Source: an uncultured Nitrososphaerales archaeon (GTDB taxonomy: Archaea > Thermoproteota > Nitrososphaeria > Nitrososphaerales > Nitrososphaeraceae). From it: a stretch of DNA of 64,000 bases. The number at the start of each line of letters is the position of its first letter. The stretch's first letter is position 1. The stretch covers positions 896,001 to 960,000 of the forward strand of contig CAVOHZ010000010.1 in assembly GCA_963695855.1 (NCBI GenBank), given 5' to 3'. This document shows positions 12,036-53,405 of the stretch, in pieces. Below the pieces are notes generated by a model that was not told where the DNA came from, ran no database searches, and saw only the letters and a program-made list of their open reading frames with translations. A program made the position numbers and the translations under genes.

Positions 12036-12110
12036 GGGCCGGTGGTCTAGCCTGGTTAGGATACCGCCTTGACATGGCGGGGATCGTTGGTTCGAATCCG
12101 ACCCGGCCCA
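12036..12110 (+). tRNA. trnV: tRNA-Val(GAC), intronless
   Basis: Acceptor stem GGGCCGG/CCGGCCC plus discriminator A; D-arm with TGG; anticodon arm CCGCC-TTGACAT-GGCGG; T-arm GTTGG-TTCGAAT-CCGAC. Confidence 0.97.
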
Positions 12111-12155
12111 GGTCATATCTGTCTGCTTTTATAGGCCCAATACTATATAACATGC

Positions 12156-12569
12156 ATGCAAGTCCAATCTGAAACTGAAGATTATCAGCATGAAATTAAT
12201 CCTATAACAAATTTTCTTTTTGCACTAAAAGCATCTGAAAGTAGGAGACAGTATCCAAAAAGGTTTGAAGTTTTTCTAGATTTTCAACATTTGGAGGGCG
12301 ATTTTAAAAGCAAGGTATTTGCATTTTATAAAAAAACGATAAAAAACCCTCAATGGTTATCAAACAAACTAATAGAATTTATCCAATTTCAAAAAGAAAG
12401 AGTCCAAAAGGGAGAAATTTCTGAATCTACAATTCCCTATTATTTTAAAGCGGTAAAACTATTTTGTGTAATGAATGATATAACTATTAATTGGCAAAAG
12501 ATAAGCAAAGGGATTCCTGCAGGGAAAAGAGCAGCAGAAGACAGAGCACTATCACATAATTATGTCTAA
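12156..12569 (+). pseudogene. Tyrosine integrase, N-terminal (core-binding) fragment; catalytic domain missing
   Basis: FLFALKASESRRQYPKR...FIQFQKERV.KGEISESTI.YYFKAVKLFC.MND...W.KISKGIP..KRAAEDRA resembles thaumarchaeal integrase N-termini; starts 46 nt after the tRNA and stops before any R-H-R-Y catalytic residues. Confidence 0.78.
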
Positions 12570-13629
12570 GAAAAAAGGATCTTCCTATATGAAATATTCC
12601 GGTATAATGATTTTAATACATACATCAATTTTGGTATCATATAATCTAGTAATAGCGCCTTCATTAATATTAATTGATGGAGCTCCACCAACACCCGGAA
12701 CTGAACCCCTTATACCTATCAAACCCTTTATGCCCGGTGGAGTTGGCATAGATCCTAATACTGACAGTGTGTTTATAACTGAACCACAAAACGACATTAT
12801 CAAGAAATTCACAAATAACGGTGTTTTTGTGAAAGGATGGGGCGGACCAGGGGGAGCTAATGGTAAATTTAGTGATCCAAAAGATGTCGCTGTGGATTCT
12901 ACTGGTAACATATTTGTAACCGATGGTCATAATAATCGCATTCAAAAGTTTCAATTATCGAATGTATGTCCTGTCGGCACAATACAGATTGCAGTTGGTG
13001 TATGCTTTGTTAAGAGTTGGGGTACATATGGGACGGGAAATGGGCAATTCGAGTTTCCATTTGGAATAGACATAGATTCTAAAGACAGCATATTTGTAGT
13101 TGATGCCTGGAATCAACGTATCCAAAAGTTTGACAATAATGGCAACTTTATTACTAAATGGGGTAACTGGGATACTGGTCGTCATGGTGAGTTTCAAAAT
13201 CCAGATGTTATTGCAATAGATCCTAAGACAGATGAAGTTTATGTACATGATTCTGATAACTATCGCATTCAGAAGTTTGATAATAATGGCAACTATGAAT
13301 TAAGCTGGGAAGCACAGGGTACTGACGATGGTCAATTTGGTAATGTATATGGTATTGTGGTAGATCCTGGTAATGTATATGGTATTGCGGTAGATCCTAA
13401 AACACATCATGTATATGTATCCGACACAAGTAATAGCCATATTCAAAAATTCACAAATAATACCGCATTTGTCACAAGCTGGGGTGAATATGGTGCAACA
13501 AATGGGAAATTTAACACACAATCTGACCTCGATGTAGACTCTAAAGGTGATATATTTGTAGCTGATTTGAATAATCATCGCGTTCAAAAATTTAATAAGC
13601 AAGGTAGCTTCATTTCAAAATTCCCATAA
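12562..13629 (+). CDS. Secreted NHL-repeat (6-bladed beta-propeller) protein
   Basis: Repeated F..P.GIAVD..GNIFV.D..N.RIQKF..NG.FI..WG units. Confidence 0.92.
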   Translation: MSKKKGSSYMKYSGIMILIHTSILVSYNLVIAPSLILIDGAPPTPGTEPLIPIKPFMPGGVGIDPNTDSVFITEPQNDIIKKFTNNGVFVKGWGGPGGANGKFSDPKDVAVDSTGNIFVTDGHNNRIQKFQLSNVCPVGTIQIAVGVCFVKSWGTYGTGNGQFEFPFGIDIDSKDSIFVVDAWNQRIQKFDNNGNFITKWGNWDTGRHGEFQNPDVIAIDPKTDEVYVHDSDNYRIQKFDNNGNYELSWEAQGTDDGQFGNVYGIVVDPGNVYGIAVDPKTHHVYVSDTSNSHIQKFTNNTAFVTSWGEYGATNGKFNTQSDLDVDSKGDIFVADLNNHRVQKFNKQGSFISKFP

Positions 13630-13704
13630 TTTATTACCACATTAATTACATATAATAAACTTGCAAAAAAGAAGATTAAATTCATAACATCTGATATATT
13701 TACA

Positions 13705-14430
13705 GGTGCTATTAACTTAAGGAAAGAGATATAGCTGTGAACGTTCTATTCTAACAATATATGTTATTAAGATTTGTCAGAAATAGAACATCCGCATGTA
13801 TAGTAATGTACTCTTTGTGTTTGTACTTTCTTGGTCTCAGTCTACGAAATACATCCAAAGCATTGGTAATATTTAGAGATAAAAAGAGAAGTCACATTGC
13901 TGTATGGAACTGGATTCAAAGATTTGGTTCATTGCAGATCTACAATAAACATAGAAGAATTTCTGCATTCATAATTGATGAAACTATAATTCAGATTGGT
14001 GATCAACACTTTTGGTTATGGATTTGTATTGAACCAATTCATTCTTCAGTGCTTGGAATCCATATTTCTGAAGAGAGAAATATGCTTGTTGCTGAAAAAT
14101 TCCTTAGATCGTTAGTTGAGAAGTATGGAAGGCATCCAGTTTACACAGATGGTGGGACATGGTATCCAGAAGCATGTAATCTACTGGGATTGAAGCACTA
14201 TCTACATTCTTCGATAGAGAAAAGTCTAATGGAACGGGTTAACCAGTATTTGAAAGATAGAACAGAATGTTTTGATGATTACTATCCATGTATCAAAGAG
14301 GAATGTAATCTATTTCATGTATATAACTGGATACAATTCTTTGTATCTATGTATAATGATACAATAGCAGATAATAATAATTATGATTTTGAGTTAAAGG
14401 AGGTGGAAATTATCTTAAATTAACAGAGCC
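13705..14430 (+). mobile_element. IS6-family insertion sequence
   Basis: Imperfect terminal inverted repeats GGTGCTATTAACTTAAG / CTTAAATTAACAGAGCC enclosing the transposase; target duplication only partial. Confidence 0.85.
13761..14423 (+). CDS. IS6-family transposase
   Basis: [40 protein letters not shown] motifs. Confidence 0.9.
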
Positions 14431-14636
14431 TATTTGACTATATTTTTTTATTTTTATTTTTTTCAATAGAATTCTATTGCACAAACCATATAGGAATAAT
14501 GAATTTTATCACATCGACAGATTTAACTTCCTATACGTACGTCAGATTTAGACTATTAAAACATCTTAATCAAAAAATTGTAAGATAAAAATCAAGTTGG
14601 TTAATTTTATTAATATAAATCAATATAGAGAAAAAA

Positions 14637-15794: not shown

Positions 15795-15827
15795 CAGGCA
15801 AAAATGACCGTTGCCCAAGCCGGCCCA
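15795..15827 (+). repeat. att-like site, family B hairpin with tRNA-Val 3' core
   Basis: CAGGCA-AAAA-TGACCG-TTGC-CCAAG-CCGGCCC-A; last 8 nt identical to the tRNA-Val 3' end. Confidence 0.65.
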
Positions 15828-16127
15828 TGTAATTTTTATAAATTTGATTGTACTTTTTTACAATTTTCATATTATTTAACAAAGTATTATCAAATTTATT
15901 GTTTCTCTCTTTTTGGGAAAAATTTAAAAATAAAAAAATTTTATGAGGAAGTATACCGGTAATTTTTATTGACGGCAAAATTGTTTTGAAAAAAGAGTTT
16001 TACTTCATATGAAATTGAGTTAATGGACTAATTTTATGGTAGAATCAAGCATTTGTTTATTTATTTTTCATGAATCTTATACCAGAAATTTAATTTTTTT
16101 ATAACTTTCAAGATGATAATATGATAA

Positions 16128-16385
16128 ATGAGACCTCACAAATACAGGAGGAATTACAATACATTTTTCATAAAACATGGATTTAATCCGTGGAAGTATC
16201 ATATAGAAGATCACAAGTATCATGAAAGGCTACCGTCCGGATACCATGTCTCACAGACATGGGGCGGATTGCATAAGGCATGGGTCGGATATTGTATAGC
16301 CAGAGACAAATTGGAACCGGATAGGGAAATACATTATGCCAAAGTAATACAAAAGTTACAAAAGGAGTTGGGCTTGAAAGTTTGA
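16128..16385 (+). CDS. Small hypothetical protein (three copies in the window)
   Basis: 85 aa; degenerate paralogues at 43216 and 44887 share the LHKAWVGY.IA..K.E.D.EI.Y...IQKLQ.ELGL motif. Confidence 0.7.
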   Translation: MRPHKYRRNYNTFFIKHGFNPWKYHIEDHKYHERLPSGYHVSQTWGGLHKAWVGYCIARDKLEPDREIHYAKVIQKLQKELGLKV

Positions 16386-16455
16386 GAATTTGAATGTTTA
16401 AGCTAATGAATATTAGAAACATGAAATAGGAAAAAAGATAGAAACCGAAAAAAAA

Positions 16456-16758
16456 TTAGATACTGAGACTTGTAAATATTATTTGTTGCACTCTTTCTCT
16501 CCATTCCTTAGATGAAATTATCTTTTTATCCTCTAATAGTTCAACAATTGAGTCTATCATGTATTCAAGAACATGCAGATCATTGTTATAGTCAGGACAT
16601 GTATGTTTGTCAGAATTTGTCTTGTAACTGTTTAGAAAAATAGAAGAAATAACAATATTCTGAATTCGTTCTGACTCAGTATTCCCTAACAATTCCAGAT
16701 CTTTATTGATAGTATCCAAAACATCTTTTGGATGTGAAATTTGAGTTTTATCTTCCAT
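16456..16758 (-). CDS. Putative ribbon-helix-helix (CopG-like) protein
   Basis: N-terminal beta-helix-helix pattern (QISHPKDVLDTINKDL..LGNTESERIQNI) shared with 45206..45478. Confidence 0.55.
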   Translation of the reverse strand: MEDKTQISHPKDVLDTINKDLELLGNTESERIQNIVISSIFLNSYKTNSDKHTCPDYNNDLHVLEYMIDSIVELLEDKKIISSKEWRERVQQIIFTSLSI

Positions 16759-16946
16759 TTAACTAAATTATTGCGCCTAAGGTTTTTATTATTTTCAATA
16801 CGATCTTTTTCCCTGTTTTTTAAAAAGAATCATGTTGTTTGCTGAGCATAAGCTTTGTAAATTATTTTTTTATTGATATTATTTGAAATATTTCTAAAAT
16901 TAATTATTAATATTTAATACCATCTTCCTGTTATTGATTAATTAAG

Positions 16947-17201
16947 ATGAGTGACATTGATATTTGGCAAAAAGAGTTCTGGAATCGATTGAATCAAGAA
17001 ATGCAAGAAAATTTTAAAAAACAAATGGAGCTTACACAACAACAGGTAAAAGAACAAATTGAACTTACACAAGAACTGGTAAAAAAACAAATGGAGCTTA
17101 CACAAGAACAGGTAAAAGAACAATTGGAATTTACAGGAGAACTGGTAAAAAAACAATTGAACATAAAGAAGGACAGCCAAGAAGATCAGAAGAAGAAGTA
17201 A
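16947..17201 (+). CDS. Small coiled-coil protein with 11-residue repeats
   Basis: KKQMELTQEQV-type 11-mers (33-bp DNA repeats); paralogue at 45666..45932. Confidence 0.7.
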   Translation: MSDIDIWQKEFWNRLNQEMQENFKKQMELTQQQVKEQIELTQELVKKQMELTQEQVKEQLEFTGELVKKQLNIKKDSQEDQKKK

Positions 17202-17392
17202 AAAGATTGATAGAAGTGGCTATGAAAAATGCACAGGATTTCCTCAATCAACATAGTCCAACATTAGCAATGATAGAATTTGAACAAGCAAGATTAAGAA
17301 ATTTCTTGAAGGAGTGAAATTTCCCTTTATTTTTATTAATTTAAAATAATTAAAAAATAAATCTTTAATATTATTATCTTTATTACCATATA

Positions 17393-17440
17393 TTAGACTC
17401 TTATTTTTGCACCGCTATAGGTATTACTACCTCCTTGGCA
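17393..17440 (+). repeat. att-like site, family A (degenerate core)
   Basis: TTAGACTCTTATTTTTGCACCGCTATAGGTATTACT; one of 7 copies. Confidence 0.75.
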
Positions 17441-17490
17441 AATTCCTATATTTTCTGAATAAGTACAAAATAATTAAAATTAAGTTTCTC

Positions 17491-17556
17491 ATAATAAAAG
17501 CTAAATACAAGATAGTAGCAGCAGAACCCTACTACATTGAAGATTCCACTCTCGAC
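17491..17556 (+). repeat. att-like site, family D
   Basis: ATAATAAAAGCTAAATACAA...AGAACCCTACTACATTGAAGATTCCACTCTCGAC; one of 5 copies. Confidence 0.7.
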
Positions 17557-17928
17557 CAGATAGCTGAGTATGTCGATGAACCCTATTGTTAAAAAGAAGT
17601 AAAATTCAAGCAACTTGCCAGTTCAAATTTGCTATTATACTGACTTTCAGAGCATCTTTAACATTTTTGGTAAATTCTAAAGTAGTTTTTGTTGTTGTAT
17701 AACTATTGTATCTCAGAATTTCACATAATCTAAATAATCTTTCATTTCATTTTCATATATCAAAATCTTATCTGCAACTATTACTACTGATTTTTATTGA
17801 GTGCTAAGACATGACCTTTTCTTAAATAATTTTTTTATTTGCAAATAATATTTAGAATATTTTACTATAATTATCTTACCCTTTATTGTTATATTATACT
17901 AATATAAGTAAATCACTTATCTAATAAT

Positions 17929-18198
17929 ATGAAATATAGAAGTAGAACAGAAATAGTAAGTAATATACTGGATGCTGCAAATGGAGGAGCAACCAAGACA
18001 AAAATTATGTATAATGCTTTTCTAAGTTATAAACAGTTAAAGGAAAACCTTTCTGTCTTGATAGAAAACAATCTAATAGAATATCTTGAAGGAACTAAAA
18101 CATTCAAGACTACAGAAAAAGGATTAAATTTACTAAAAATGCAAAACGAAATGGCAGAATTATTACAAATTACAATCGGAAATGACAAATTAATTTAA
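17929..18198 (+). CDS. Winged helix-turn-helix regulator (ArnR1-like / HTH_45)
   Basis: MKYRSRTEIV..IL....GGATKTKIMY.A.LSY.QLKE.L..L....LI......FKTTEKG. Confidence 0.9.
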   Translation: MKYRSRTEIVSNILDAANGGATKTKIMYNAFLSYKQLKENLSVLIENNLIEYLEGTKTFKTTEKGLNLLKMQNEMAELLQITIGNDKLI

Positions 18199-18422
18199 TC
18201 TTTTTCAATATACTAACATACACAATATTTTTTTTATAGTAATTCTATATTAATATCTAGTTTAAAGACAACGAAAAGTTAATCCTTAATTATCTGTGAT
18301 ACTACAATGCTAGACTTTTATTATATAATCGATATATGAAATATTGCATTAACTACCATGGTAGAATACTGAAAATACTCTGTCGTCTTGACGAAGTTAT
18401 GGTACTATTATAATTAAGTTTG

Positions 18423-18459
18423 GATTAGTAACAAATTGTAACTCAAACTACCCGGCCCA
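18423..18459 (+). repeat. att-like site, family C hairpin with tRNA-Val 3' core (candidate attR)
   Basis: GATTAGTAACAAATTGTAACTCAAACTACCCGGCCCA; ACCCGGCCCA (18450-18459) is identical to tRNA-Val 12101-12110. Confidence 0.75.
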
Positions 18460-18499: not shown

Positions 18500-18933
18500 T
18501 TGAAGTTGTGGTTCCTCCAATAAATCCGGAAGATTATGATCTTGTAGAATTTTGGGGGAATAGGAAAATATAGTTCACCAGAATTTTCATGGATGTTGCT
18601 GCTGTTGCTCTGACGTTTCTTAACTCTGATAGATTAGGTGAAATGTATGAAAATGATATGTTTGTAGGAGACATCAAACAAGGTAATCTTTACCGTTTTG
18701 AACTAGATGAACAGAGAAAAGGGTTGGTACTTGATGGAGCACTTGCAGATAAAGTTGGTAGAAAAGATGAGATAAACCAAGTAGTGTTTGGTCAGGGATT
18801 TGGTGGTATTACAGATATAGAAGTAGGGTCCAATGGTTATCTGTATATTTTAACCTTTGACAAAAAGAATGGAACAATATATAAAATAGTACCAACAGCT
18901 GCAGATAGAGGAGAACAAGAAATAACTTCATGA
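18500..18933 (+). pseudogene. C-terminal fragment of a PQQ-dependent (GSDH-family) sugar dehydrogenase
   Basis: GKYSSPEFSW, FLNSDRLG..YENDMFVGD, FGGITDIEVG.NGYLYIL match the C-terminus of intact paralogue 26977..28266. Confidence 0.85.
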
Positions 18934-19030: not shown

Positions 19031-20074
19031 ATGATATTTTCAAGATCTGGGATAATAATAGTTCCTATTACTCTTTTTATTTTCTCTCTAAACATTATGA
19101 CAACTTTTTCAATCAGCATAGAAAAGAGTGACATTACTCTTAAAAATCATGATGCACATTCTTCCCTTTCTCCTTCTTCTTCTCCTCTATCTGCAGGAAC
19201 GCTTAATACTTTAACAGATTTTAACTTTGCAGCTGTTGGAGATTGGGGATGTACATCTGACACTACAAATACTCTAAAAAATATTCAAGATAAAAATCCA
19301 GAATTTGTATTGGTATTAGGTGATCTTTCCTACGATAAAAGTACCCAATGTTGGTTTGATATAATAGATCCCATTGCAGAAAAAATTATGAGTGCAATTG
19401 GGAACCATGAAGTTGATTCAACTAAAAAACTTCAACAATATATGGATTATTTTGGTTTAGAAGAATAATACTACTCATTTAATTATGAAAATATTCACTT
19501 CACTGTGATCTCCATAAAACTTCCGTATGAGGAGGTTTCTGAGCAGTATAATTTTATCAAAAATGATCTTTTTATGGCATCGACAGATCCTAATATAGAT
19601 CGGATTATTGTATTTTATCATAGTTTAGCCTATACCTCACCTGCAGATACCGGCAAAGGCAATAGAGCAGAAAAAGAATTGAGAGAGACTTATCATCCTT
19701 TATTTGAGGAATATAAAGTGGACCTAATATTGCAGGCACATAATCACAACTACCAAAGGTCATATCCAATAATCTATAACAACGATGATCCAAAGAATCC
19801 CATAATAACAGATGATAATAATAATAAAAACTAGAATGACCCAGAAGGACAGATATTTGCAACAGTGGGTACTGGTGGTGCAGAAATTTATCCTTTAACC
19901 TGACAAGCTGATTATGTTGCTACTCAATATGAAGGATTTGGCTTTTTGAATGTATATGTGATAAACAATGGAGTAACTCTTGATGGCAAATTTTATGCTA
20001 ATAATGGAACAATAAAAGACCAGTTTACTATCACAACATCAGCTAATGTCGATAAAATCTATACAAATGATTAA
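19031..20074 (+). pseudogene. Secreted calcineurin-like metallophosphoesterase (purple acid phosphatase type) with in-frame stops
   Basis: GDWG, LGDLSY, GNHE, AHNHNYQR and VGTGG motifs in one frame, interrupted by stops near 19466, 19832 and 19901. Confidence 0.88.
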
Positions 20075-24150: not shown

Positions 24151-25530
24151 TTACGAAAGAAAATCTAATTTACTTATTTTCTTAAAAAAAATATCGTTAT
24201 TCTCAAATTTTGTATCTTGCCAAACTATAAACACGTTTGGTCCAGAGACAACCAGTGAAGGATTTAAAGCTTTTAATCCCTGATCATCTAATACAATTCC
24301 TTTACGCGAAGAGTCTTTAAAATATCCGAATGGATAAAATTCGATGGTACTTTTATTATTCGGAAAATTCGCTACCCAAATTCCAAAGAAATAATCACCT
24401 CCTGCTATCAGTTTCGGTGATTTTGTATTTCCTATAGATTCTAATATATTCGTGCCACCAAAACTCAATTTATCAGTCTTTGCATGCCTGAAGAATATTC
24501 TATTCTCCATATTAATATTCGATTTTTTTGCAGCTTGTAAATCTGTACTATTCTCATCTTGCCAAATAACATAAGTTTCATTATTTAAAAGAGCTACATC
24601 TGGAAATTTTGAAATCCCTGTAGTATTGCTTATCATCTTGGTCTTTTTAAAAATCTTCCCTGTTTTTTGACTTGCTTTAAAATATATCTCCTTATTTCCA
24701 TTGGTATCATCATCCCATACAACATAAACATTCTTCCCTGATGCAGCAATTTGCGGAAATTCTGATGTCCCGTTATTTTCACTAAGATTCTTTTTACCTT
24801 TAAACTCTTCACCGCCATTTGGACTTGCTTTAAAATATATCTCCTTATTTCCATTGGTATCATCATCCCATACAACATAAACATTCTTCCCTGATGCAGC
24901 AATTTGCGGAAATTCTGATGTCCCGTTATTTTCACTAAGATTCGTGATAGCTCCGAATGTACTTCCATTATCTAAACTAGAAGTAAAATATATCTCCTTA
25001 TTTCCATTGGTATCATCATCCCATACAACATAAACATTCTTCCCTGATGCAGCAATTTGCGGAAATTCTGATGTCCCGTTATTTTCACTAAGATTCGTGA
25101 TAGCTCCGAATGTACTTCCATTATCTAAACTAGAAGTAAAATATATCTCCTTATTTCCATTGGTATCATCATCCCATACAACATAAACATTCTTCCCTGA
25201 TGCAGCAATTTGCGGAAATTCTGATGTCCCGTTATTTTCACTAAGATTCGTGATAGCTCCGAATGTACTTCCATTATCTAAACTAGAAGTAAAATATATC
25301 TCCTTATTTCCATTGGTATCATCATCCCATACAACATAAACATTCTTCCCTGATGCAGCAATTTGCGGAAATTCTGATGTCCCGTTATCTTGACTGATAT
25401 TGGTATTATGACCAAAATAAAGGGATTCTGGTATGATGCCATAGGCCAAACCATTATAATGAGAAAAATGATAGTAAATTATCAATATCATAAGAATTAA
25501 AATTTGTAAAATTAATACCTGACAAATCAT
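24151..25530 (-). CDS. Secreted BNR/Asp-box (sialidase-like) repeat protein
   Basis: 51-aa repeats PQIAASGKNVYVVWDDDTNGNKEIYFTSSLDNGSTFG containing the S.D.G.TF Asp-box. Confidence 0.88.
   Translation of the reverse strand: MICQVLILQILILMILIIYYHFSHYNGLAYGIIPESLYFGHNTNISQDNGTSEFPQIAASGKNVYVVWDDDTNGNKEIYFTSSLDNGSTFGAITNLSENNGTSEFPQIAASGKNVYVVWDDDTNGNKEIYFTSSLDNGSTFGAITNLSENNGTSEFPQIAASGKNVYVVWDDDTNGNKEIYFTSSLDNGSTFGAITNLSENNGTSEFPQIAASGKNVYVVWDDDTNGNKEIYFKASPNGGEEFKGKKNLSENNGTSEFPQIAASGKNVYVVWDDDTNGNKEIYFKASQKTGKIFKKTKMISNTTGISKFPDVALLNNETYVIWQDENSTDLQAAKKSNINMENRIFFRHAKTDKLSFGGTNILESIGNTKSPKLIAGGDYFFGIWVANFPNNKSTIEFYPFGYFKDSSRKGIVLDDQGLKALNPSLVVSGPNVFIVWQDTKFENNDIFFKKISKLDFLS
24669..25388. 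repeat. Intragenic 153-bp tandem repeat (about 4.7 units)
   Basis: GATGTCCCGTT recurs at 24764, 24917, 25070, 25223 and 25376; three units appear nucleotide-identical. Confidence 0.92.
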
Positions 25531-25809
25531 AATATGATACTCTTCTGTAAAAGTCTGGGATATGATATTAATGTTTAAGTGAATGATCTATGTTTATTTG
25601 GTATACAATAATAACTAAAAAAAATATAATAATGATTAAAAAATTTATCCACTAATAACGAAAAAATTTATAATTAATAAATATGGAAAAATCACTGAAT
25701 AGGGTAAAATTGAGAGAAAATTTGGATCATTCTGTTCCATTCCTGTAAAATATGATCTGTTTTTTGCATCCGAAATCCTATCTTACCTTGATTACTGGTG
25801 TAATTCCAC

Positions 25810-26169
25810 TAAAAGAAAGGTATTGAAAATTCTTGTTACTGTCATACCAACCATCCATGATAGCAGGTTCTAATGGCAATGTATTTGAACCGTGTTTCCT
25901 AACTATACTTTCTGTTTATCTATAAGATATGAAAGGATGCTCACGTACCAACCCCCAATTATTTGATAAATAATCTGGGTATACGAACTTTCTACCTTCC
26001 TTGTCCTTGTTCATCTCTTATAATTCAGTATCTAGCCATCAATAACATCAAAACGAAGTAATACCTTTCCATGTCTACCAAGAGTTTATTGTATTTCTTC
26101 CAGTTCACTCTTGATTACTGGAATAAGACAGCCAGACGTGGTAGGATTAGCGAGTTATGAAACATAGCA
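25810..26169 (-). mobile_element. Internally deleted, degenerate IS5 copy
   Basis: 25970-26169 aligns with the 5' end and terminal repeat of IS 10607..11624 (AGCGAGTTATGAAACATAGCA); 25820-25865 aligns with the DGAYDSNKNFQ region. Confidence 0.8.
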
Positions 26170-34762: not shown

Positions 34763-34763
34763 A

Positions 34764-38228: not shown

Positions 38229-38270
38229 GCTGATATAAGTGCTAAAATTATGTTCTTTACAATTTACTAT

Positions 38271-38985: not shown

Positions 38986-39031
38986 CCATCTGATTTTGGC
39001 TGAATTCTTTTTGAGCGTCAGAATTCTGTAA

Positions 39032-40595
39032 CTATTTGAGTACCTCTGTGACTTTTTTACCATCTTTTGTCCATGATGTTATCTCTTTTTTACCATCAGG
39101 ATATTCTGTAATTACTTGATTATCTTTTGTTGTGGTAATTTTTGTTTCTTCTCCTTTGGACCCGAAAAGTATTGTTTCAGTTGTACCATCAGGAAGTATT
39201 TTTTCAATTTTGTTATCTGTTTTCGTAATTTTACCTGCTGTTATTCCTGAAATTTTATACTCTGTGACACTTAATCCTGGTTTCTCATATTTGCTTTCCA
39301 CAAGGCCGGAAGGATTTACAATATATTCTTTTTTTGTATCTCCCTGTTTTATTTGGTAAACCTTTGTACCATCTGTTTCTTTGTAACTATACCAGTTATC
39401 ATAAGTATGCTGACAATATTTTACTATCTTGTATTATCTTTTAGATCAGAATAGCTATTAGCTGATACTATAAACATGATATCTTATTGACTAGTACAAT
39501 ATCTAAAGCAAGATTTGAAAAACTATACAGATCTGAACATGATACTAATGTAAAGGAAAGAATGCTAATTGTGTTGAACGTAGTATATGATAAACAGATT
39601 CCTGCACAGGTAGCAAGAGATCTTCATAGAAGCAGAACATGGGCTTCTGACTGGTTAAAGAGGTACAGGAAAGAAGGTATAGAAGGATTAAAAAACAGGA
39701 CAAAGAGTGGCAGACCACCAGATATACCAGAAGAGACTGTATATGAGATAAAAAACGAATTAGCATCCAGTAAACAAGGATGGACTACGAAACAGGTAGA
39801 AGATCTAATAGTAAGGAAGAGTGGTGGAATCAGATACCATTATACACATATTTACAGACTAATGCACAAGTGGGGATTCAAACAGAAGGTACCAAGAAAA
39901 GTGCATGTGAACACAGCATCAAAAGAAGAGAAAGAGGATTTTAAAAAAGAGCAAGAAAGGTACTGGATACTCTCCAGCAGCAGCATCAGCAAGAAGGATT
40001 TACAGTAGTATCTACAGATGAATCATTTTTCTTCTATGATTCACTTGTCAGGAAAGTATGGATAAACAAGGATGAAAGACCAGTTGTAAGGATTACGGGG
40101 TCACATCAGGAGTCAGTTCTATTTGGTACCACAAGTCTGGAAGGAAAACAGATGTTCAGGCAATATGACTGGTTTGATGAAAACACATTTTTAGATTATC
40201 TAAAACAGATACACAGAAAGTTTCCAAAATGTTATCTGTTTCTGGATAAAGCAAAACAGCACTACAGATCATATAAGGTACTACGATATTTTGATGAACA
40301 CAAACAGAATCTAATTCCAATATATCTTCCAACAGCATCTCCGGAATTTATGGTACTGGAAGAGATATGGCATATAGCCAAAAACGATCTGCTTGTACTA
40401 CAATACTATTCATCCTTTACAGATTTCAAAAATAAAATATCCTCGTATTTTAAGACAAAAAGATTCTGTCTTGATATGAGACACTATCTGTTGGGAGGTG
40501 TCAGCTAACATATGCTAGATGGTATAGTTGTCGTCTTACCATCAGGATATTCTATGATTATATGATCATTATAACTAGAAAAGATATTTTCGGTC
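39032..40595 (-). pseudogene. Repeat protein with (Y/L)PDG turns, split by IS630
   Basis: Removing the IS and one TA rejoins IIEYPDGKTT/SYKETDGTKVYQIKQGDTKKEY... into listed ORF 39032..39301. Confidence 0.7.
39390..40524 (+). mobile_element. IS630-family IS (orfA 39487..40008 plus orfB to 40508 via -1 frameshift)
   Basis: Terminal repeats TACCAGTTATCATAAGTATGCTGAC / GTCAGCTAACATATGCTAGATGGTA; TA duplication; TTTTAAAAAAG slippery site; TDES, LDKA, EEIW. Confidence 0.92.
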
Positions 40596-44462: not shown

Positions 44463-44886
44463 TATACAAACTATATAGAAGTTTATTATTTAGATATAGT
44501 GTTTTCAATGCTATTTTATATCCATGGTTTCAGCTGAATTTGCACATTCTAATATTTTTCTATAGAAAGAATACAAAAGTTGTGAATTCATCCAGTTTGT
44601 TGTTTAAAAAAGAGATTTTCTTCAGGATAATCAATTCGATATTCCGTAATTCTATTAATATTATTATTTGTTGGGAAAAATTTAAAAAGAAAAAAATTTT
44701 ATGAGGAAGTACACTAGTAATTTTCTTGCCGGAAAAAATATTTTAAAAAATATATTTGTATCAGGTGTAAATTGCATGATGTATTAATTTGAAGTTAGAA
44801 CTGAAAGAATTATGTTATGTATTTTTCCAATAAGCTTATACCAAAAGTTTAATTTTTTAATAACTTTCAAGATCATAAAATAATAA

Positions 44887-45158
44887 ATGAGGGCTCTACA
44901 GGAGGAATTACAATACATTTTTCATAAAACATGATTTGATCCTTGAAGTATTATAGAGAAAGCCAGAAGTATCATGAAAGATTACCATCCGGGTACCACG
45001 TAAATCGGACATGAGGTGCTTTACATAAGGCATGAGTGGGCTACTGGATAGCCAGAGATAAATTGGAACCTGATAAGGAGATTTATTATACAGAAGTAAT
45101 CCAAAAGTTGCAAAAAGAATTTGGGTTAGAACTCTTAGAGTTTGAATGTTTATCTTGA
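44887..45158 (+). pseudogene. Degenerate paralogue of 16128..16385
   Basis: Colinear DNA similarity with several stops and indels. Confidence 0.75.
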
Positions 45159-45205
45159 ATATAGATAGTGGGAGTTAAGTAAAAAAGCACTTAATATCAG
45201 GTTAT

Positions 45206-45478
45206 CTAATTTCTCATGATTTTGGTACATTCTTTATCTTCATCCATTACATGTAGATCAAGAATTATTGATATCACATTTTCAATATCACGAATACGGG
45301 ATTTAATATGCTGGAATTCATCTTTGATAGAATTTAGGTGATAGTTTTTTTGAAAAATAGAAGAAATAGCAATATTTTGGATTCGTTCTGATTCAGTATT
45401 CCCTGACAATTGCAGATCTTTATTGATAGTATCCAGAACATCTTTTGGAAGTGAAATTTTTAGGATCTTAGCCTCCAT
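45206..45478 (-). CDS. Putative ribbon-helix-helix (CopG-like) protein
   Basis: KISLPKDVLDTINKDL..SGNTESERIQNI; N-terminal half shared with 16456..16758. Confidence 0.55.
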   Translation of the reverse strand: MEAKILKISLPKDVLDTINKDLQLSGNTESERIQNIAISSIFQKNYHLNSIKDEFQHIKSRIRDIENVISIILDLHVMDEDKECTKIMRN

Positions 45479-45665
45479 TTTAATAAATTATTGCGTTTAA
45501 AGTTTTATTATTTTCAATACGATCTTTTTCCTATTTTTTTAAAAAAAATCATGTTGTTTGCTGAGCATAAGCTATGTAAATTATTTTTTTATTGATATTA
45601 TTGGAAATATTTCTAAAATTAATTATTAATATTTAATAGCATCTTCCTGTTATTGAATAATTGAG

Positions 45666-45932
45666 ATGAGTGACATTGATATTTGGCAAAAAGAGTTCTG
45701 GAATCGATTGAATCAACAAATGCAAGAAAATTTTAAAAAACAAATGGAACTTACACAAGAACAGGTAAAAAAACAAATGGAACTTACACAAGAACAGGTA
45801 AAAAAACAAATGGAATTTACACAAGAACAGATAAAAGAACAATTGGAATTTACAGGAGATCTGGTAAAAAAACAATTGAATATACAGAAGGACAGCCAAG
45901 AAGATCAGAAGAAGAAGCTAAAAGATCGATAA
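45666..45932 (+). CDS. Small coiled-coil protein with 11-residue repeats
   Basis: Paralogue of 16947..17201. Confidence 0.7.
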   Translation: MSDIDIWQKEFWNRLNQQMQENFKKQMELTQEQVKKQMELTQEQVKKQMEFTQEQIKEQLEFTGDLVKKQLNIQKDSQEDQKKKLKDR

Positions 45933-46112
45933 AAGTGGCTATGAAAAATGGAGACTTTTCTTAATCAACATAATCCAACATTAGCAATGATAGAATTTGA
46001 ACAAGCAAGATTTTTAAGAAATTTCTTGAGAGAGTGAAATTTCCCTTTATTTTTATTAATTTAAAATAATTAAAAAATAAATCTTTAATATTATTATCTT
46101 TATTACCATATA

Positions 46113-46161
46113 TTAGACTCTTATTTCACACTGCTATCGGTGTTACTCCCTACTGGCCGGT
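46113..46161 (+). repeat. att-like site, family A
   Basis: TTAGACTCTTATTTC-ACACTG-CTAT-CGGTGT-TACT-CCCTA-CTGGCCG-GT. Confidence 0.78.
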
Positions 46162-46292: not shown

Positions 46293-46330
46293 GATTAGTA
46301 ACAAATTTGTAACTCAAAACTACCCGGCCC
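46293..46330 (+). repeat. att-like site, family C with tRNA-Val 3' core
   Basis: GATTAGTAACAAATTTGTAACTCAAAACTACCCGGCCC; last 9 nt match tRNA-Val 12101-12109. Confidence 0.75.
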
Positions 46331-46393
46331 CTAATCTTTTAAAAATAATAGTATAATAATTGAACAGTAGATTTTAAATATTATGCCTTTTTA

Positions 46394-47524
46394 TACCAAT
46401 TAGCATAAGTATACTGACTTTATTTTACTATTGTATCATACATTTTAGAGCAGAATAGCTATTAGCTACTATTATTATTAACATGATACATCTTATTGAT
46501 TACTACAGAAATATCAAAAACAAGATTTGAAAAACTATACAGATCTGAAAATGATGCTAATGTAAAGGAAAGAATGCTACTTGTTTTAAATGTAGTATAC
46601 GAGAAACAGATTCCCGCACAGGTAGCAAGAGATCTTCATAGAAGCAAGACATGGGCATCTGACTGGTTAAAGAGATACAGAGAAGAAGGAATAGAAGGAT
46701 TAAAAAACAGAACAAAGAGTGGAAGACATCCAGATCTATCAGAAGATACAATATATGAAATAATAAAGGAATTATCATCCAGCAAACAAGGTTGGACTAC
46801 AAAACAGGTAGAAGATCTGATTGTGAAAAAGAGTGGTGGAATAAGATACCATTACACCCACGTATACAGACTCATGCACAAGTGGGGATTCAAGCAGAAG
46901 GTACCAAGAAAGTTACATGTTAATACAGCATCAAAAGAAGAGAAAGAAAATTTTAAAAAACAGCCAGAACGATTCTGGATACTCTCCACGACGAAGGATT
47001 CACGGTAGTATCTACAGATGAATCATTTTTCTTCTATGATTCACTCGTCAGGAAAGTATGGATAAGCAAGTATGAAAGACCAGTTGTAAGGATTACAGGG
47101 TCCCATCAGGAATCTGTCTTATTTGGTGCCACAAGCCTTGAAGGAAAACAGTTATTCAGACAGTACTACTGGTTTGATGAAAATACCTGTTTAGATTACC
47201 TAAAACAGATACACAGAAAATTTCCAAAATGTTACTTGTTCCTAGATAAGGCAAAACAACATTACAGATCGAAAAAGGTACTGAAATATTTTGCTGACAA
47301 TGGAGATAGTTTGATTCCAGTTTATCTTCCAACAGCATCTCCAGAGTTTATGGTACTGGAAGAGATATGGCATATAGCCAAAAACGATCTGCTTGTTCTA
47401 CAATATTATTTGTCATTTACTGATTTTAAAAATAAAATATCATTATATTTTAGAACAAAAAGATTTCATCTTGATATGAGAAACTATCTGGTTGATGGTG
47501 TCAGCTAACATATGCTAAGTGGTA
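46394..47524 (+). mobile_element. IS630-family IS (orfA 46496..47008 plus orfB to 47508)
   Basis: TACC...GGTA ends with TA duplication; TTTTAAAAAAC junction; TDES, LDKA, EEIW. Confidence 0.92.
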
Positions 47525-47539
47525 TACTATAACACAATA

Positions 47540-47590
47540 TTAAATTCTTATTTTTGCACTGCTATCGGTATTACTCCCAACGAATCAGTA
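47540..47590 (+). repeat. att-like site, family A
   Basis: TTAAATTCTTATTTTTGCACTGCTATCGGTATTACTCCCAACG. Confidence 0.72.
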
Positions 47591-48635: not shown

Positions 48636-48693
48636 AATAATAAAAGCTAAATACAATGTAGTAAAACCTACCACATGAAAGATTCTACTCCAG
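48636..48693 (+). repeat. att-like site, family D
   Basis: AATAATAAAAGCTAAATACA-ATGTAGTAAAACCTACCACAT-GAAAGATTCTACTCC. Confidence 0.7.
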
Positions 48694-49724: not shown

Positions 49725-49763
49725 TTGGGTCCTAATTTTTCCACCGCTATCGGTATTATTCTC
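49725..49763 (+). repeat. att-like site, family A
   Basis: TTGGGTCCTAATTTTTCCACCGCTATCGGTATTATTCTC; begins the duplicate of 29551-29900. Confidence 0.72.
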
Positions 49764-49809
49764 TATATTCATTATGGTAGAAGATTTTGTTTGTATTTAT
49801 CTAATTTTC

Positions 49810-50822
49810 TGGTTTGTTGCATAACTCGTTTAACCAATCGTTCTCATTATTATATAATTGATAATTATGTAACAGTTATACTTTGAAACCAGTTATACAA
49901 CGATGCTTTCAACATTATCTCTCTTATCATGTTCTCTAACCTGATAGCAGTAACATATTCACCAAACATTCTCTTCATAGAGGAAAAAACAGATTCTACC
50001 ATCCATCTTTGTCCATAGCGTACACTATCTTTCCATTCTTGCAAATCATTCTTCTGCATTTTCACCATCTTGTTTCTAAGGTAATGATTGGTCTTGTTTC
50101 TGCATCTAGAATTCTTTCTTACCTTTATTGCTGGTTGTATGCCTTTAAATGATAGAAACTGAAAGATCTTGTTGCTATCATAGGAACCATCCATGATAGC
50201 AGTATCTATTACCTTATTCTGTTTTATTGCTATATAATCAACCAATTTTGGAAGTACTTTTACATCATGTACTTCTTCACTAGTAACATCTAATGATAGA
50301 ATTCTCTTCTTTTTTATATCGACTGCTAAATGTATCTTTAGATATCCTCTTTTTACATTCCACTTGTGTCTAATCCATTCACCCCTCTTAGATACCTTTA
50401 TACCGGTAGAATCAATTGCAATAACAAAATTATCATCATGCAAGTTAGATTTGGTTATATCATCAGAAATCTTGATATCCAGTCTATTTATTCTTCTGCT
50501 AATGTTACTATAATCTGGAATTGATGGCAAAGTGTTTGAAGCATGTTCTCTTACTACTCCTTCAGTTTGTCTGTAGGGTAAGTGAAAGTATGCTCTCATG
50601 TATCCCAATAACTTGACAAATGAATCTGGATATACGAATTTCCTACCTTCCTTTTCCTTATTCATCTTCTCTAGTTCAGTATTCCAGTTATCTATAACAT
50701 CAAAATCCAGTAATACCTCACCACGTTTAACAAGAGATTCGTTGTAATTTCTCCAGTTCACATAATATGACTAGAATTGGTTAGCTAAATGTGTTGAGAA
50801 GAACAAGTTGTGCAACAAGGCA
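49810..50822 (-). mobile_element. IS5-family insertion sequence
   Basis: Terminal repeats TGGTTTGTTGCATAACT / AGTTGTGCAACAAGGCA; 8-bp target duplication TAATTTTC (49802-49809, 50823-50830); empty site visible near 29628. Confidence 0.92.
49865..50761 (-). CDS. IS5-family DDE transposase
   Basis: Close paralogue of 10662..11561 with the same motifs. Confidence 0.95.
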   Translation of the reverse strand: MNWRNYNESLVKRGEVLLDFDVIDNWNTELEKMNKEKEGRKFVYPDSFVKLLGYMRAYFHLPYRQTEGVVREHASNTLPSIPDYSNISRRINRLDIKISDDITKSNLHDDNFVIAIDSTGIKVSKRGEWIRHKWNVKRGYLKIHLAVDIKKKRILSLDVTSEEVHDVKVLPKLVDYIAIKQNKVIDTAIMDGSYDSNKIFQFLSFKGIQPAIKVRKNSRCRNKTNHYLRNKMVKMQKNDLQEWKDSVRYGQRWMVESVFSSMKRMFGEYVTAIRLENMIREIMLKASLYNWFQSITVT

Positions 50823-51007
50823 TAATTTTCCATATTCTTGCCTTTCTTACTATTTAATATTATTGGAAAACCAAAAAGTAAAAATAGTAAACTAATCATT
50901 GGAACAAATATTCGAATGGAACTTTCTGTTATAGTTATAATTAACGGAATTGCCAACATGACAGCGCCTAACACCATAAAAATTATTCCTATTCTTCTCT
51001 CTTCCAA
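50771..51007 (-). CDS. Small two-helix membrane protein, 3' end extended into IS5
   Basis: Paralogue of 29627..29812; the IS inserted at its stop codon region. Confidence 0.55.
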   Translation of the reverse strand: MEERRIGIIFMVLGAVMLAIPLIITITESSIRIFVPMISLLFLLFGFPIILNSKKGKNMENYALLHNLFFSTHLANQF

Positions 51008-51181: not shown

Positions 51182-51393
51182 TGTACTTTTATTGTAATGT
51201 ATTCCCTTTATTGCTTTCAACCCATGCAAATCCTCAATAATAATTATTATAGCATTTCTCTAAAAAGCAAAAATATAGAACAATTTAGATAAACAAAAAA
51301 AACGATTTAGGAATTTAATACCCTAATGAATATAAAACTACCTAGTACTGGATTTGAAATTCGAAGATAGAGGATTCATTAGTACTTCCATAG

Positions 51394-52041
51394 TTATGGA
51401 CCTCTGTATTCTACTACTGAATAAAATGCGTTCTTTCCAGAGTGGTCAAAATTTAAACTTGGAGTAGTAATACGCATTATCTTTGTTTTTGCTGCTTCTG
51501 CAACTTTCCAAATAAATCCGTTTGGTAGTTGTACCTTTGTATCCTGTTCTTCCCCAGTTACAGGATTCTTAAAACTTTCTAAATGAACATCCATGATATT
51601 GGATACAGTGAAACTACTTCTCTTTCCATCTATCTTGATATTGATGTCTACAAATTGAGGTTCTAGAAAATATTTTATTGTCCCTGCAAAGAGAGCAAAA
51701 GGACCTTCTCCTTTAGCTTTACCCGAAAATATATCGACTAATGCACTTCTTATATTATTATATGGTGTATTTTTAGTAATGTAAAGCTGCATTGTACCAT
51801 TTCCTTCATGTATTGCCTTCGGCCAGGCATATGCACCAACTACATCTAAGCCATCTAATTTTACATCTCCATAATTTCCTTCTCTTATATGATACAGTAC
51901 TAAAGCTCTGCAAAAGCCTGAGGAAGGAAAACCATCAAAATTACATGGACAACCATAATCACAATTACATGTTTCAACATAATCGGCTTTTAAATGCCAA
52001 GTCGGAATCTGAGTGGTAGATGATGATAACGAATATTTCAT
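51394..52041 (-). CDS. DUF1326-domain protein (Cys-rich, metal-binding)
   Basis: YVETCNCDYGCPC.F...P..G.C, I.EG.YGDV.LDGL, WP..IHEG. Confidence 0.85.
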   Translation of the reverse strand: MKYSLSSSTTQIPTWHLKADYVETCNCDYGCPCNFDGFPSSGFCRALVLYHIREGNYGDVKLDGLDVVGAYAWPKAIHEGNGTMQLYITKNTPYNNIRSALVDIFSGKAKGEGPFALFAGTIKYFLEPQFVDINIKIDGKRSSFTVSNIMDVHLESFKNPVTGEEQDTKVQLPNGFIWKVAEAAKTKIMRITTPSLNFDHSGKNAFYSVVEYRGP

Positions 52042-52123
52042 ATCAATAACTAATTATTTATTTGTATAAAAGAATATCTTTATACAGTAAAATTAATTTG
52101 ATTACTACTAATCAAAAGGATTC

Positions 52124-52906
52124 TCAACAATGGATAATAGGTTCTAACTTTTGTCTTAATAAAATACCTGAATATGCAAAATCATTCTTCATTATAGCTT
52201 CAGTATACTTTGTAAATAGTGAATTGTCAATACATGAACCATCGATAGGATATACCATATTTGGTGATAAATCTTCAAGCCTTTTAGTTGTATTTCTCAC
52301 AGGTTTCTTACTGGCAAATATTCCAGCACATCTATAAAGATTAATCAGTAGTTCTGAAAGTTCTTCAGATAAAACAGGTTTATTCTTTCCTGGTTGGATA
52401 AATAAATCAGAAGTAAACAGTGACTTGGTATTCTGCTCAAATATCATCATACTATCCTAGTGATGAACATGTGGTGTCATAATGTATTTGAATTGCCTCT
52501 TACCAGTCTTTAGGATTTCAATTTCCCAAACTGCTATATGGTCTAAAGGAATGTTATACCAGCCCATCATTTTTAGCTTTGAACTTAAATCGCTGCATAC
52601 TAATTTTGCATAAGCAGATTCTAAAAATCCCATTCCACCCCGTTGGTCACTTTCAAAATTAAAAAAAGATATATATGCTAACTTTTGCAAAGGGATAACT
52701 TCTTATATTTTTTGTTCTAAATTTTTATACATTCCTATGGGACCTGTATGAAATAACATAGGTTTTTCATCATCAATCAAAAATTGATGAAACGTTATTC
52801 CAAATGTATTTGAGAATCCGGATATTCTATAGATTGCATCAGTAATTTCAGAAATGGTAACATCAACATCCTTATTATAATAATCAGTCTTGTTAATTTC
52901 TCTCAT
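52124..52906 (-). pseudogene. Metallo-beta-lactamase-fold (FprA/ODP-like) protein, fragmented
   Basis: Three consecutive ORFs: QFLIDDEKPMLFHTG; FESD; TPHVHH then MMIFE...LFTSDLF. Confidence 0.82.
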
Positions 52907-53367
52907 CTTTAGAATAGATTAACATAAGTAAATAATTTTCATGAAATTTGCTTGTAGGTAGATTAAATATATTGGATGACAAATATATCCAATAGTCGTA
53001 TGAATCTTCTCTTAGCAAAAAGATTCGATACCCCTTATTTTATTAAGTCCTTCTGTTCTAAATAGTTACCAAAAAACTAAATCTAATAAAATATCATTTT
53101 CATTATCAGGAATTCGTTGTCTATAAAAAGGAATTCGCCCTAAGATTTATTAAAAAAATCAGAAAATAAGATTAAAAAGAATATTATAAAAAACATTATA
53201 AAGAGGAAATAAAATAAATAGGACAAAAAAATGATTCGATATAGTAACTTTAACTACTGATCTATAATAAATTATATATTGACTTTTTCATGCATGTCTT
53301 TGTAATTAGAAAAGCCGTATTATCATTTCTAATCATAATTCTTACATAATATCACTTTATTGTAACC

Positions 53368-53405
53368 TTAGACTCTTTAGCGCCGGCATCAGTGTTACTG
53401 GCGAC
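53368..53405 (+). repeat. att-like site, family A (most degenerate, right edge of island)
   Basis: TTAGACTCTTTA-GCGCCG-GCAT-CAGTGT-TACT-GGCGA. Confidence 0.55.

Follow-up and report, generated by a model that had tools for sequence, protein, structure and literature searches.

Co-oriented sites with tRNA-derived cores divide an island downstream of tRNA-Val into short gene modules in an ammonia-oxidising archaeon

The island downstream of tRNA-Val and the anatomy of its sites

The window analyzed here is a stretch of 64,000 nucleotides (nt) from the genome of an uncultured Nitrososphaerales archaeon (G000:C10:896001-960000, where G000 denotes the host genome and C10 the contig). It contains an island of ~41 kb, measured from a tRNA-Val gene to the last of 19 intergenic sites, which forms a one-way row of short gene modules. 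The host genome comprises 3.55 Mb in 11 contigs with ~31% G+C and encodes an archaeal AmoA, indicating that the host is an ammonia-oxidising archaeon. The soil ammonia oxidisers of this family have large genomes that are rich in insertion sequences (IS), and the way in which their flexible gene pool is built up has been little studied.

An earlier note on this DNA had listed 19 co-oriented, intergenic motifs on the + strand, had seen none in the flanks, and had interpreted them as recombination junctions. The description proved accurate: all 19 motifs belong to repeated families, lie on the + strand and do not overlap any open reading frame (ORF) of at least 80 aa. Profile hidden Markov models (HMMs) built from window copies recovered 17 of the 19, all 17 on the + strand, while the site at 28388 was recovered by blastn-short and that at 34935 as a core match; the HMMs found no copy in the window outside 15796-53408. 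Each family has its own arm of 35-65 nt, followed in most families by a core of 9-16 nt. Family A is represented in the window at 17393, 29551, 38179, 46113, 47540, 49725 and 53368, family B at 17491, 26454, 28388, 29961 and 48636, family C at 18423, 38951 and 46293, family D at 15795, 35660 and 37393, and family E at 34935 alone. The motifs are not confined to this island and are present elsewhere in the genome and in the lineage. The anchor, the sites and the right border of the island are as follows, with G035 and G014 denoting the genomes of two close relatives.

12036-12110, + strand: tRNA-Val(GAC), the island anchor (ARAGORN; Rfam tRNA, 60 bits, the only Rfam match in 11000-55000 at E up to 1)
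12156-12569, + strand: tyrosine integrase N-terminal fragment, 137 aa (tblastn)
15795-15827, + strand: site, family D-like arm, core GCCGGCCCA (tRNA-Val end)
17393-17441, + strand: site, family A, core replaced after ACTACC
17491-17562, + strand: site, family B, with TATA-like box, inverted repeat and ACTCTCGAC; runs on into module M2
18423-18459, + strand: site, family C, core ACCCGGCCCA (10 nt of the tRNA-Val end)
26438-26495, + strand: site, family B, core GAACGGGCCCC (listed earlier as 26454)
28388-28410, + strand: 5′ box of a composite B/A site, severed by an IS630-like element (blastn-short)
29551-29593, + strand: family A arm, the other half of the split composite site; opens module M3
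29961-30026, + strand: site, family B
34935-34971, + strand: site, family E, inverted repeat TTGAAC..GTTCAA, core ACTCCCGACGGG (homologous arms at G000:C8:278699 and 303323)
35660-35696, + strand: site, family D, core cut after CCCGAC
37393-37425, + strand: site, family D, full 13-nt Lys core
38179-38227, + strand: site, family A, perfect 16-nt Lys core
38951-38992, + strand: site, family C, degenerate core
46113-46160, + strand: site, family A, core ACTCCCTACTGGCC
46293-46333, + strand: site, family C, core ACCCGGCCC
47540-47582, + strand: site, family A, 15 nt 3′ of the IS630-like element 46392-47526
48636-48693, + strand: site, family B
49725-49767, + strand: site, family A, M3-type continuation, then the IS5-like insertion 49806-50826
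53368-53408, + strand: last site, family A, degenerate; the 80% homology to G035 upstream ends here
53691-59262, no strand assigned: conserved chromosomal flank, right island border (92% identity to G035 and G014)

The entries at 28388 and 29551 represent a single composite site that was split by the IS630-like insertion at 28409-29536, and unbroken versions of this site are found elsewhere in the genome.

The core CGGGCCCG is specific to particular tRNAs and is not a generic tRNA mimic. In its complete form, ACTCCCGACGGGCCCG, it is identical to the last 16 nt of an intron-bearing tRNA gene at G000:C8:2734-2821, which lies on a contig other than that of the window. This gene scored 56.8 bits in Rfam, and ARAGORN called it Lys without the intron mode and placed the intron differently with it; we read it as tRNA-Lys(UUU). 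On the other hand, CCGGCCCA or ACCCGGCCCA at 15795, 18423 and 46293 corresponds to the end of the island's own tRNA-Val, and the cores of family C and of site 15795 comprise 8-10 nt of that 3′ end. Three to four sites in the window are of this Val type, and the other ~15 copy tRNA-Lys. The tRNA acceptor-end mimicry claimed in the earlier note holds insofar as the cores are real tRNA ends, but most of them derive from tRNA-Lys(UUU) and not from the tRNA-Val of the island, which had gone unnoticed. The 16-mer core was found 38 times in the genome with up to three mismatches, compared to no match in one shuffled genome, which excludes chance as the explanation; of the 38 matches, one is the tRNA-Lys gene and four were discarded as belonging to other tRNAs or to chance.

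The likeness to tRNA-Lys(UUU) extends beyond the core in family A, which in an alignment by eye corresponds, with decay and deletions, to the gene from the anticodon loop to the 3′ end; in this alignment the 'hairpin' of family A represents the former anticodon-stem and T-stem strands. A right arm of ~20 nt, consisting of a T-rich run followed by GGGYYCA, follows the intact core in 27 of 33 copies (counted by eye). Upstream, 26 of the 50 family A copies have a YTAAATA heptamer located at -31 to -26 relative to the arm's first base, compared to 0.5% for such a window elsewhere, and a box is found at an equal distance in family B.

An inverted repeat precedes the core in the consensus of every family, so that this part of the claim of a hairpin before the core stands. 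A hairpin maintained by selection as a structure was not supported: RNAalifold returned no consensus structure for the sites, and the variation mostly breaks the pairing, leaving the stems without covariation. Individual positions of the B stem are paired in 24-30 of 32 copies, with a single compensatory change, and at position 2 of the A stem 16 of 42 copies are paired.

At window position 17526-17582 and in other family B sites, the inverted repeat is followed immediately by an ATG, from which a short frame starting with ME(D/G)(S/T)TPD extends across the core; with an M2 continuation it gives a peptide of 17-18 aa ending in EPY(C). This frame (MEDSTPD...) gave no convincing coding signal, as its length varies from 1 to 63 codons and the minor-allele counts at the three codon positions are 10, 8 and 14, with no clear excess at the third.

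The geometry of archaeal promoters offers a way of reading both the box and this ATG, which lies at the distance of a leaderless start. The box before the arms fits an archaeal promoter that would point across the core. It could be argued from this that the sites are small transcription units, each a promoter with a tRNA-like leader or small RNA, or promoter and 5′ leader cassettes shared between island genes, and that they are not recombination sites at all. Such an origin would explain why YTAAATA precedes the A arm in about half of the copies and why family B carries a box at matching distance. However, we consider it highly improbable: Rfam has no family that matches any site, the stems do not covary, the short ORF of family B is neither constant in length nor clearly enriched for third-position changes, the ORFs downstream of the sites run in either direction (81 versus 66, see below), and the identity of the core to tRNA-Lys, the breakpoints within the core and the insertion or deletion described in the following section would be left unexplained. 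A promoter inside a recombination site would, in addition, be compatible with the reading as attachment (att) junctions developed below.

Junctions, modules and distribution of the sites

Comparison of the copies within each family showed where their homology ends. Of 48 family A copies, 22 retain 14 or more core positions, and the homology of the others is lost at positions 1-7 (21 copies) or 9-11 (5 copies); nine of 25 family B copies break at core positions 8-9. The copies thus diverge inside the core. The stretches between successive cores include the following modules:

15910-17435, + strand: module M1, ends in a family A arm (further copies at 44668-46154 and G000:C8:20227-21797; blastn, 82-86% identity)
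17563-18266, + strand: module M2, with an 89-aa winged-helix gene at 17929-18198 (Pfam HTH_45, E 5.7e-20)
29542-30023, + strand: module M3, consisting of A arm, small ORF, B arm and core (blastn)
34957-35685, + strand: glyoxalase-family single-gene module, ends in a D arm (Pfam PF00903)
37426-38227, + strand: module X, 802 bp, consisting of a right-arm-like start, a 98-aa ORF at 37723-38019, A arm and core
38228-38872, - strand: module M4, with a GNAT acetyltransferase at 38271-38822 (Pfam)

The homology of the three M1 copies ends inside the A site, and the DNA downstream of it differs between them; both window copies of M1 also contain 33-nt tandem repeats (16971-17225 and 45690-45911). Module M3 has four copies of ~91% identity, one in the window, two at other places in G000 and one in G035, and the neighbours that were compared are unrelated. 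The glyoxalase module exists in two G014 copies (94-95% identity) in addition to the window copy, and three unrelated sequences follow right after CAACCCGAC. The GNAT module lies 3′ of A arms of two subtypes, and the centre of M2 has up to 12 other blastn matches in the genome.

The most direct evidence for gain or loss at the cores came from module X. At G035:C58 a D arm with its core leads directly into the GNAT module (97% identity), whereas in the window the 802-bp module X is inserted between the two, exactly from core to core. The two sites that bound module X differ in their arms and share only 14 nt, indicating that recombination between long homologous stretches was not the cause. Together with the divergence of the copies inside the core, this agrees with the proposal of recombination junctions in the earlier note. 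A joint from 38227 to 37430 was present in two soil-metagenome runs, which could represent a circle junction, a tandem copy or another locus; the four metagenome runs consist of assembled contigs, and site-adjacent joints with sides of 21-38 nt were not counted as evidence for excision.

We analyzed 177 core-to-core modules from G000 and from other loci. Their median length is 1.6 kb, 123 of the 177 are 2.5 kb or shorter, and nearly all of them lack an integrase, as expected from the small cargo modules that had been proposed. The longest ORF is oriented with the sites in 81 modules and against them in 66, and 30 modules have none. Where whole modules recur as families, the neighbours differed in six of six upstream and nine of nine downstream comparisons that were feasible.

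The HMMs identified 90 sites in G000 (A 50, B 32, C 3, D 5), of which 67 are located in six arrays of at least three sites each; these arrays span 160 kb, or 4.5% of the genome. Neighbouring sites within 12 kb of one another are co-oriented in 60 cases and opposed in six, with a median spacing of 1.6 kb. Three of the arrays lie downstream of a tRNA gene and are co-directed with it, namely those behind tRNA-Val (the window), tRNA-Lys (C8:21-45 kb) and tRNA-Met (C3:68-83 kb), and a looser cluster of three sites follows tRNA-Arg(GCG) in the direction of the tRNA (C6:94-110 kb). Family C, which carries the Val core, is restricted in G000 to the window island (three of three copies) and is otherwise found in the orthologous island of G035 and G014.

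Beyond the host, a 22-nt family A pattern was present with up to two mismatches in 18 of 18 congeneric genomes and in none of 12 genomes from other genera of the order, and the reversed pattern was absent from all of these genomes. An exact 20-nt family A pattern matched more than 107 stretches among 185,579 species genomes. The counts of sites, spacing and integrases given here for other genomes are based on 80 listed loci (458 kb), which are titled Nitrososphaeraceae or Nitrososphaerales in 78 cases, 'Thermoproteota archaeon' in one and Serratia in one. The last of these, locus L063, is an exact match on a 3.2-kb contig titled Serratia sp. and is probably assembly contamination or a chance match. 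The 80 loci contain 183 HMM sites with a median spacing of 1.46 kb, and neighbouring sites were co-oriented in 103 cases and opposed in none. Likewise, on five contigs of two close relatives all 36 of 36 sites lie on one strand per contig. Exact-pattern scans of viral contigs with the A arm and the B arm gave no match, which carries little weight since only exact matches would have been detected.

The motifs occur genome-wide, but only in arrays that are locally one-way, and the one clean gain or loss between species breaks at their cores, so that neither of the outcomes which the earlier note had named as refuting its proposal was found. This pattern bears on another alternative, in which the sites would be a tRNA-derived miniature inverted-repeat transposable element (MITE), or an element resembling a short interspersed nuclear element, that spread by transposition. 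Some ~90 copies of 60-130 nt that derive from a tRNA and are restricted to a lineage are what such an element would leave behind. We nevertheless give this alternative hardly any credence, because neither terminal inverted repeats nor target duplications were seen in the aligned copies, the copies share one edge (the core) and not two fixed ends, and transposition would not produce the uniform orientation within arrays (103 versus 0).

Integrases, proposed mechanism and related systems

The integrase fragment that the earlier note placed beside tRNA-Val is real: the ORF at 12156-12569 has no Pfam match and aligns with residues 19-123 of an intact 450-aa integrase at G000:C10:1488336-1489685 (25% identity over 116 aa, E 3.5e-5, tblastn against a 1-kb subject). 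An ORF with NHL repeats lies directly 3′ of it. The stump belongs to a different integrase family from that found at tRNA-Lys, where an intact tyrosine integrase of 448 aa (C8:2892-4238) begins 71 nt after the tRNA-Lys core in an unsplit ORF. The latter scored 20-22 bits for PF00589, below the cut-off of 27.1, whereas a paralogue at C10:1147461 that is 63% identical to it scored 28.1 bits, above the cut-off. A second paralogue, 80% identical to the tRNA-Lys integrase, is placed 3′ of the family A site C8:291660, with spacer and geometry unchanged. The tRNA-Lys integrase heads an intact-looking segment of ~19 kb that ends in module M1 and a family A arm, as expected of an attR. The cargo of this segment (G000:C8:2822-21800) includes an ApeA-type HEPN protein, a type I restriction-modification system (R, S, M), a YgjP-like metallopeptidase, a methyltransferase, a TBP paralogue and an AAA ATPase. 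N-terminal integrase fragments are numerous and scattered across G000 and the genus; in G014 and at four of the 80 loci they are found immediately 3′ of A sites.

We consider it likely that the motifs are att junctions left by the serial site-specific recombination of a tyrosine integrase. A full site would consist of the TATA-like box, the left arm of its family (A-E), a core from a tRNA 3′ end and usually the right arm of ~20 nt, with the core derived from tRNA-Lys(UUU) in families A, B, E and most of D, and from tRNA-Val in family C and the D-like site 15795. An element of this arm-core-arm type would recombine either at the tRNA gene or at any core already resident in the genome, and strand exchange would be expected inside ACTCCCGAC. 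Each event would add one module and one core in the same direction, building up one-way stacks 3′ of tRNA genes. The window would contain a stack of this kind behind tRNA-Val, with the island's own integrase worn down to the 137-aa stump. Because the modules are mostly short and lack an integrase, we infer that they represent either integrase-less units or the remnants of trimming, on which an integrase supplied from outside acted in trans, so that modules moved, disappeared or changed their order at the cores, as they may still do today; the intact copy beside tRNA-Lys is a candidate for this enzyme. The IS insertions and the pseudogenisation would have come later. Features typical of att sites of tRNA-targeting tyrosine integrases are found here in the tRNA-identical core, the recombinase gene that adjoins it at tRNA-Lys, the co-oriented repeats and one case of presence or absence that is bounded by cores.

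A number of observations weigh against this interpretation. In the window, no integrase was found besides the stump, either as a PF00589 match or by tblastn at E 1e-3, and the right border of the island has no recognisable att copy. An intact integrase of the tRNA-Lys type is absent from the site-rich close relatives: G035 retains one broken fragment, G014 only fragments, and no match was found in G012 at E 1e-20. Only one clean insertion or deletion was found, that of module X, and its 14-nt direct repeat could also have been deleted without an integrase; moreover, the relatives are metagenome-assembled genomes in which a mis-join is conceivable. Compared to its copies on C1, C6, C8 and C9, module M4 is truncated at 38872, away from any site. 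Only eight whole-module families, including one duplicate record, were found among the 177 modules. The clustering downstream of tRNA genes in one orientation that the earlier note had anticipated is seen at the Val, Lys and Met arrays and in the looser Arg cluster, but three arrays adjoin no tRNA (C8:177-201 kb, C8:257-314 kb and C2:120-123 kb). Finally, Lys-type cores lie within islands that are anchored at the Val, Met and Arg tRNAs, which a simple tRNA-specific integrase would not predict. With respect to this last point, one enzyme may use both of the similar ends, TCCGACCCGGCCC of tRNA-Val and TCCCGACGGGCCC of tRNA-Lys; it is also possible that incoming elements recombine with any core that earlier elements have left.

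The absence of an intact Lys-type integrase from the closest array-rich relatives suggests that the arrays may be fossils, and in G035 the arrays (54 kb, 23 sites) show no trace of an integrase. The stacks may be largely historical, or they may be served by integrases on incoming elements. A more radical version would regard the arrays as debris only: only full-size, integrase-bearing elements would have integrated, the short modules would be what random deletion, IS activity and core-to-core deletion left over, and no integrase-less unit would ever have moved. The intact-looking 19-kb element at tRNA-Lys with its terminal M1 and A arm, the widespread integrase fragments, the seven IS copies or fragments inside the island and the truncation of the GNAT module are in keeping with this, as are the broken genes of the window, a C-terminal GSDH fragment (18589-18933) and a metallophosphoesterase split into two ORFs (19031-19834). 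However, although the integrase adjoins the core, an integrase-like match was found in only seven of the 80 loci with their 183 sites, the other 73 showing no trace; the lengths of the modules are small and tightly distributed; and modules recur in their entirety, bounded by cores on both sides and set among different neighbours. We therefore regard an origin purely as debris as unlikely.

At the other extreme, the sites could belong to a true gene-cassette system. Single-gene modules, each with its own site of ~100-130 nt (box, arm, tRNA-Lys-derived core and second arm), would be excised and re-inserted at any resident core by an integrase acting in trans and would form stacks behind several tRNAs, as a functional analogue of the integron; the box and leader at the far end of an element might drive the integrase only once the two ends have met in a circle or tandem, and integration would switch the integrase off. 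We hold this to be possible but doubtful. With regard to integrase expression, both Lys-type copies (C8:2822-2897; C8:291611-291545, - strand) have a frame that crosses the att core and whose terminal TGA overlaps the ATG of the integrase, and a 3-nt deletion in one of the copies preserves the frame through the core. In these two copies the core-spanning frame gives only a hint that the integrase might be translationally coupled to an upstream leader, so that its expression would depend on the junction upstream.

In the SSV-type ('suicidal') integrases of Sulfolobus, integration into a tRNA gene separates parts of the expression unit of the integrase and can trap elements in the chromosome. 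A split SSV-type integrase was considered and rejected here, as the open frame from the tRNA to the integrase reflects DNA identity of the flank, the ATG lies 71 nt after the core and is also downstream of it at C8:291660, and the ORFs are intact. At most, the likeness might be that the promoter or leader of the integrase is separated from it upon integration.

If the stacks do arise by serial recombination at the cores, one recombination system would account for a visible share of the flexible genome, here 160 kb or 4.5%. The sites, which are present in every congener searched, would provide a simple sequence tag with which to map gene gain and loss in metagenomes. The arrays also show that a tRNA-derived core can spread past the tRNA from which it comes and give rise to stacks behind others, and rules for finding islands that seek repeats of the flanking tRNA would miss this. 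If the modules are mobile in trans, they would constitute an archaeal cassette system comparable in its effect to integrons.

Integrons are one-way arrays of cassettes with a platform of intI, attI and Pc, hairpin attC sites and very diverse cargo. The arrays described here resemble them in their one-way arrangement, in their short and mostly single-gene modules with end sites of ~60-130 nt, in the great diversity of the cargo pool and in the order of modules, which differs between relatives. Unlike integrons, however, they have no intI/attI/Pc platform in the window, the cargo is oriented at random, many fragments and IS copies are interspersed, and the sites are built as arm, core and arm around a core copied from a tRNA, with no support for a folded single-strand hairpin. 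The term 'integron-like' in the earlier note is thus not borne out; a strict integron does not fit, and the analogy is only partly apt.

By comparison with SSV-type elements (cf. the part of PMC7253208 on which we draw), the integrase ORF here is unsplit and attP does not lie inside it. In bacteria, the portion of PMC5704250 used here describes tandem accretion at tRNA genes and cis-mobilizable elements (CIMEs), which keep attL and attR and lack an integrase, and it names the tRNA-Lys 3′ end as a known target. The arrays of direct att repeats and the decayed, integrase-less elements described there have counterparts here, and module X, the glyoxalase module and M3 are, like CIMEs, flanked by att sites and devoid of integrase and transfer genes. 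Unlike the bacterial CIMEs in that portion, the present system has dozens of sites per genome, modules of ~1.5 kb, five arm families on one core and the same core in islands of other tRNAs; it is found in an archaeon, and the window showed no conjugation genes.

The tycheposon islands of Prochlorococcus, as presented in the sections of 10.1101/2020.12.28.424599 drawn on here, are stacks of elements parted by partial tRNA copies, with fragmented integrases. The present arrays share with them the anchoring of flexible islands at tRNA genes and the scattered partial tRNAs and integrase fragments. In those sections, the partial copies are of the island's own tRNA and the elements average 1-2 per genome, whereas here the majority of sites are copies of tRNA-Lys irrespective of the anchor, their long conserved arms are of non-tRNA origin, and there are ~90 of them per genome. 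For the Thaumarchaeota, an excerpt of PMC6563490 reports that the tyrosine recombinases of integrated elements target the 3′ part of a tRNA in 39 of 68 cases, with a median att length of 17 bp, and its authors state that such elements can form arrays by re-use of a site. The examples in this excerpt are single elements and one nested pair, compared to dozens of integrase-less modules here.

The stacking of elements at tRNA genes, integrase-less remnants that bear att sites, scattered partial tRNAs and thaumarchaeal elements with short att sites are hence already known. What differs here is the combination of ~90 sites per genome with small integrase-less modules and five families of long arms on one tRNA-Lys core, together with the spread of this core behind other tRNAs and the conservation of the system across a whole lineage of soil ammonia oxidisers. 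We found no description of such arrays in ammonia-oxidising archaea in the literature searched, though Table S2 of PMC6563490 might list related elements.

Insertion sequences, borders and cargo of the island

The IS elements of the window are the following:

10607-11627: IS5-like, just upstream of the tRNA and outside the island
13705-14433: IS6-like
25753-26169: IS5-like fragment
28409-29536, 39388-40500 and 46392-47526: IS630-like
33318-34828, + strand: IS110-family element (Pfam; blastn depth)
49806-50826: IS5-like

The IS5-like element at 49806-50826 sits in a copy of module M3, and a joint from 49810 to 50832 that lacks the IS was present in three of the four soil-metagenome runs. The IS630-like copies that end at 29536 and 47526 have opposite orientations, and each of them ends 15 nt before an A arm (29551 and 47540), between the TATA-like box and the arm. 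A preference of IS630 for the sites was considered and rejected, as only two of 12 full-length copies in the genome touch a site. The IS110-family element ends at 34828, near the family E site; a link between the two was likewise rejected, as none of the other copies of this element adjoins an E site.

At the right border, the match to the flank in G035 and G014 begins at window position 53691-53740. The orthologous island in these two relatives adjoins the same flank and has A, B and C sites, seven of eight of them co-oriented, with different cargo. The gene of the left flank at 5544-6947 is found in the relatives on contigs other than those of the right flank. Parts of this left 'chromosomal' flank, 7638-8036 and 3814-4140, have up to 32 and 16 further blastn matches in the genome, respectively. 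At the left end of the island, window position 12089-12274, comprising the last 22 nt of tRNA-Val and 164 nt 3′ of it, shares 75% identity with the end and flank of tRNA-Arg(GCG) at G000:C6:114228-114413 (blastn), and the start of the integrase-stump ORF is common to the two flanks.

Within the set of ORFs scanned between 13.7 and 53.4 kb, the cargo includes a polysaccharide deacetylase, a glycosyltransferase, GSDH, glyoxalase, GNAT, an aquaporin, an AAA/MCM-like ATPase, DUF1326 and a small winged-helix protein, mixed with IS transposases and broken genes. A 459-aa ORF at 24151-25530 has weak DUF3854 and BNR-like matches and contains five tandem copies of a 153-nt unit at 24525-25404. Just 3′ of the family B site at 26438-26495, an 18-nt repeat runs in tandem from 26612 to 26791.

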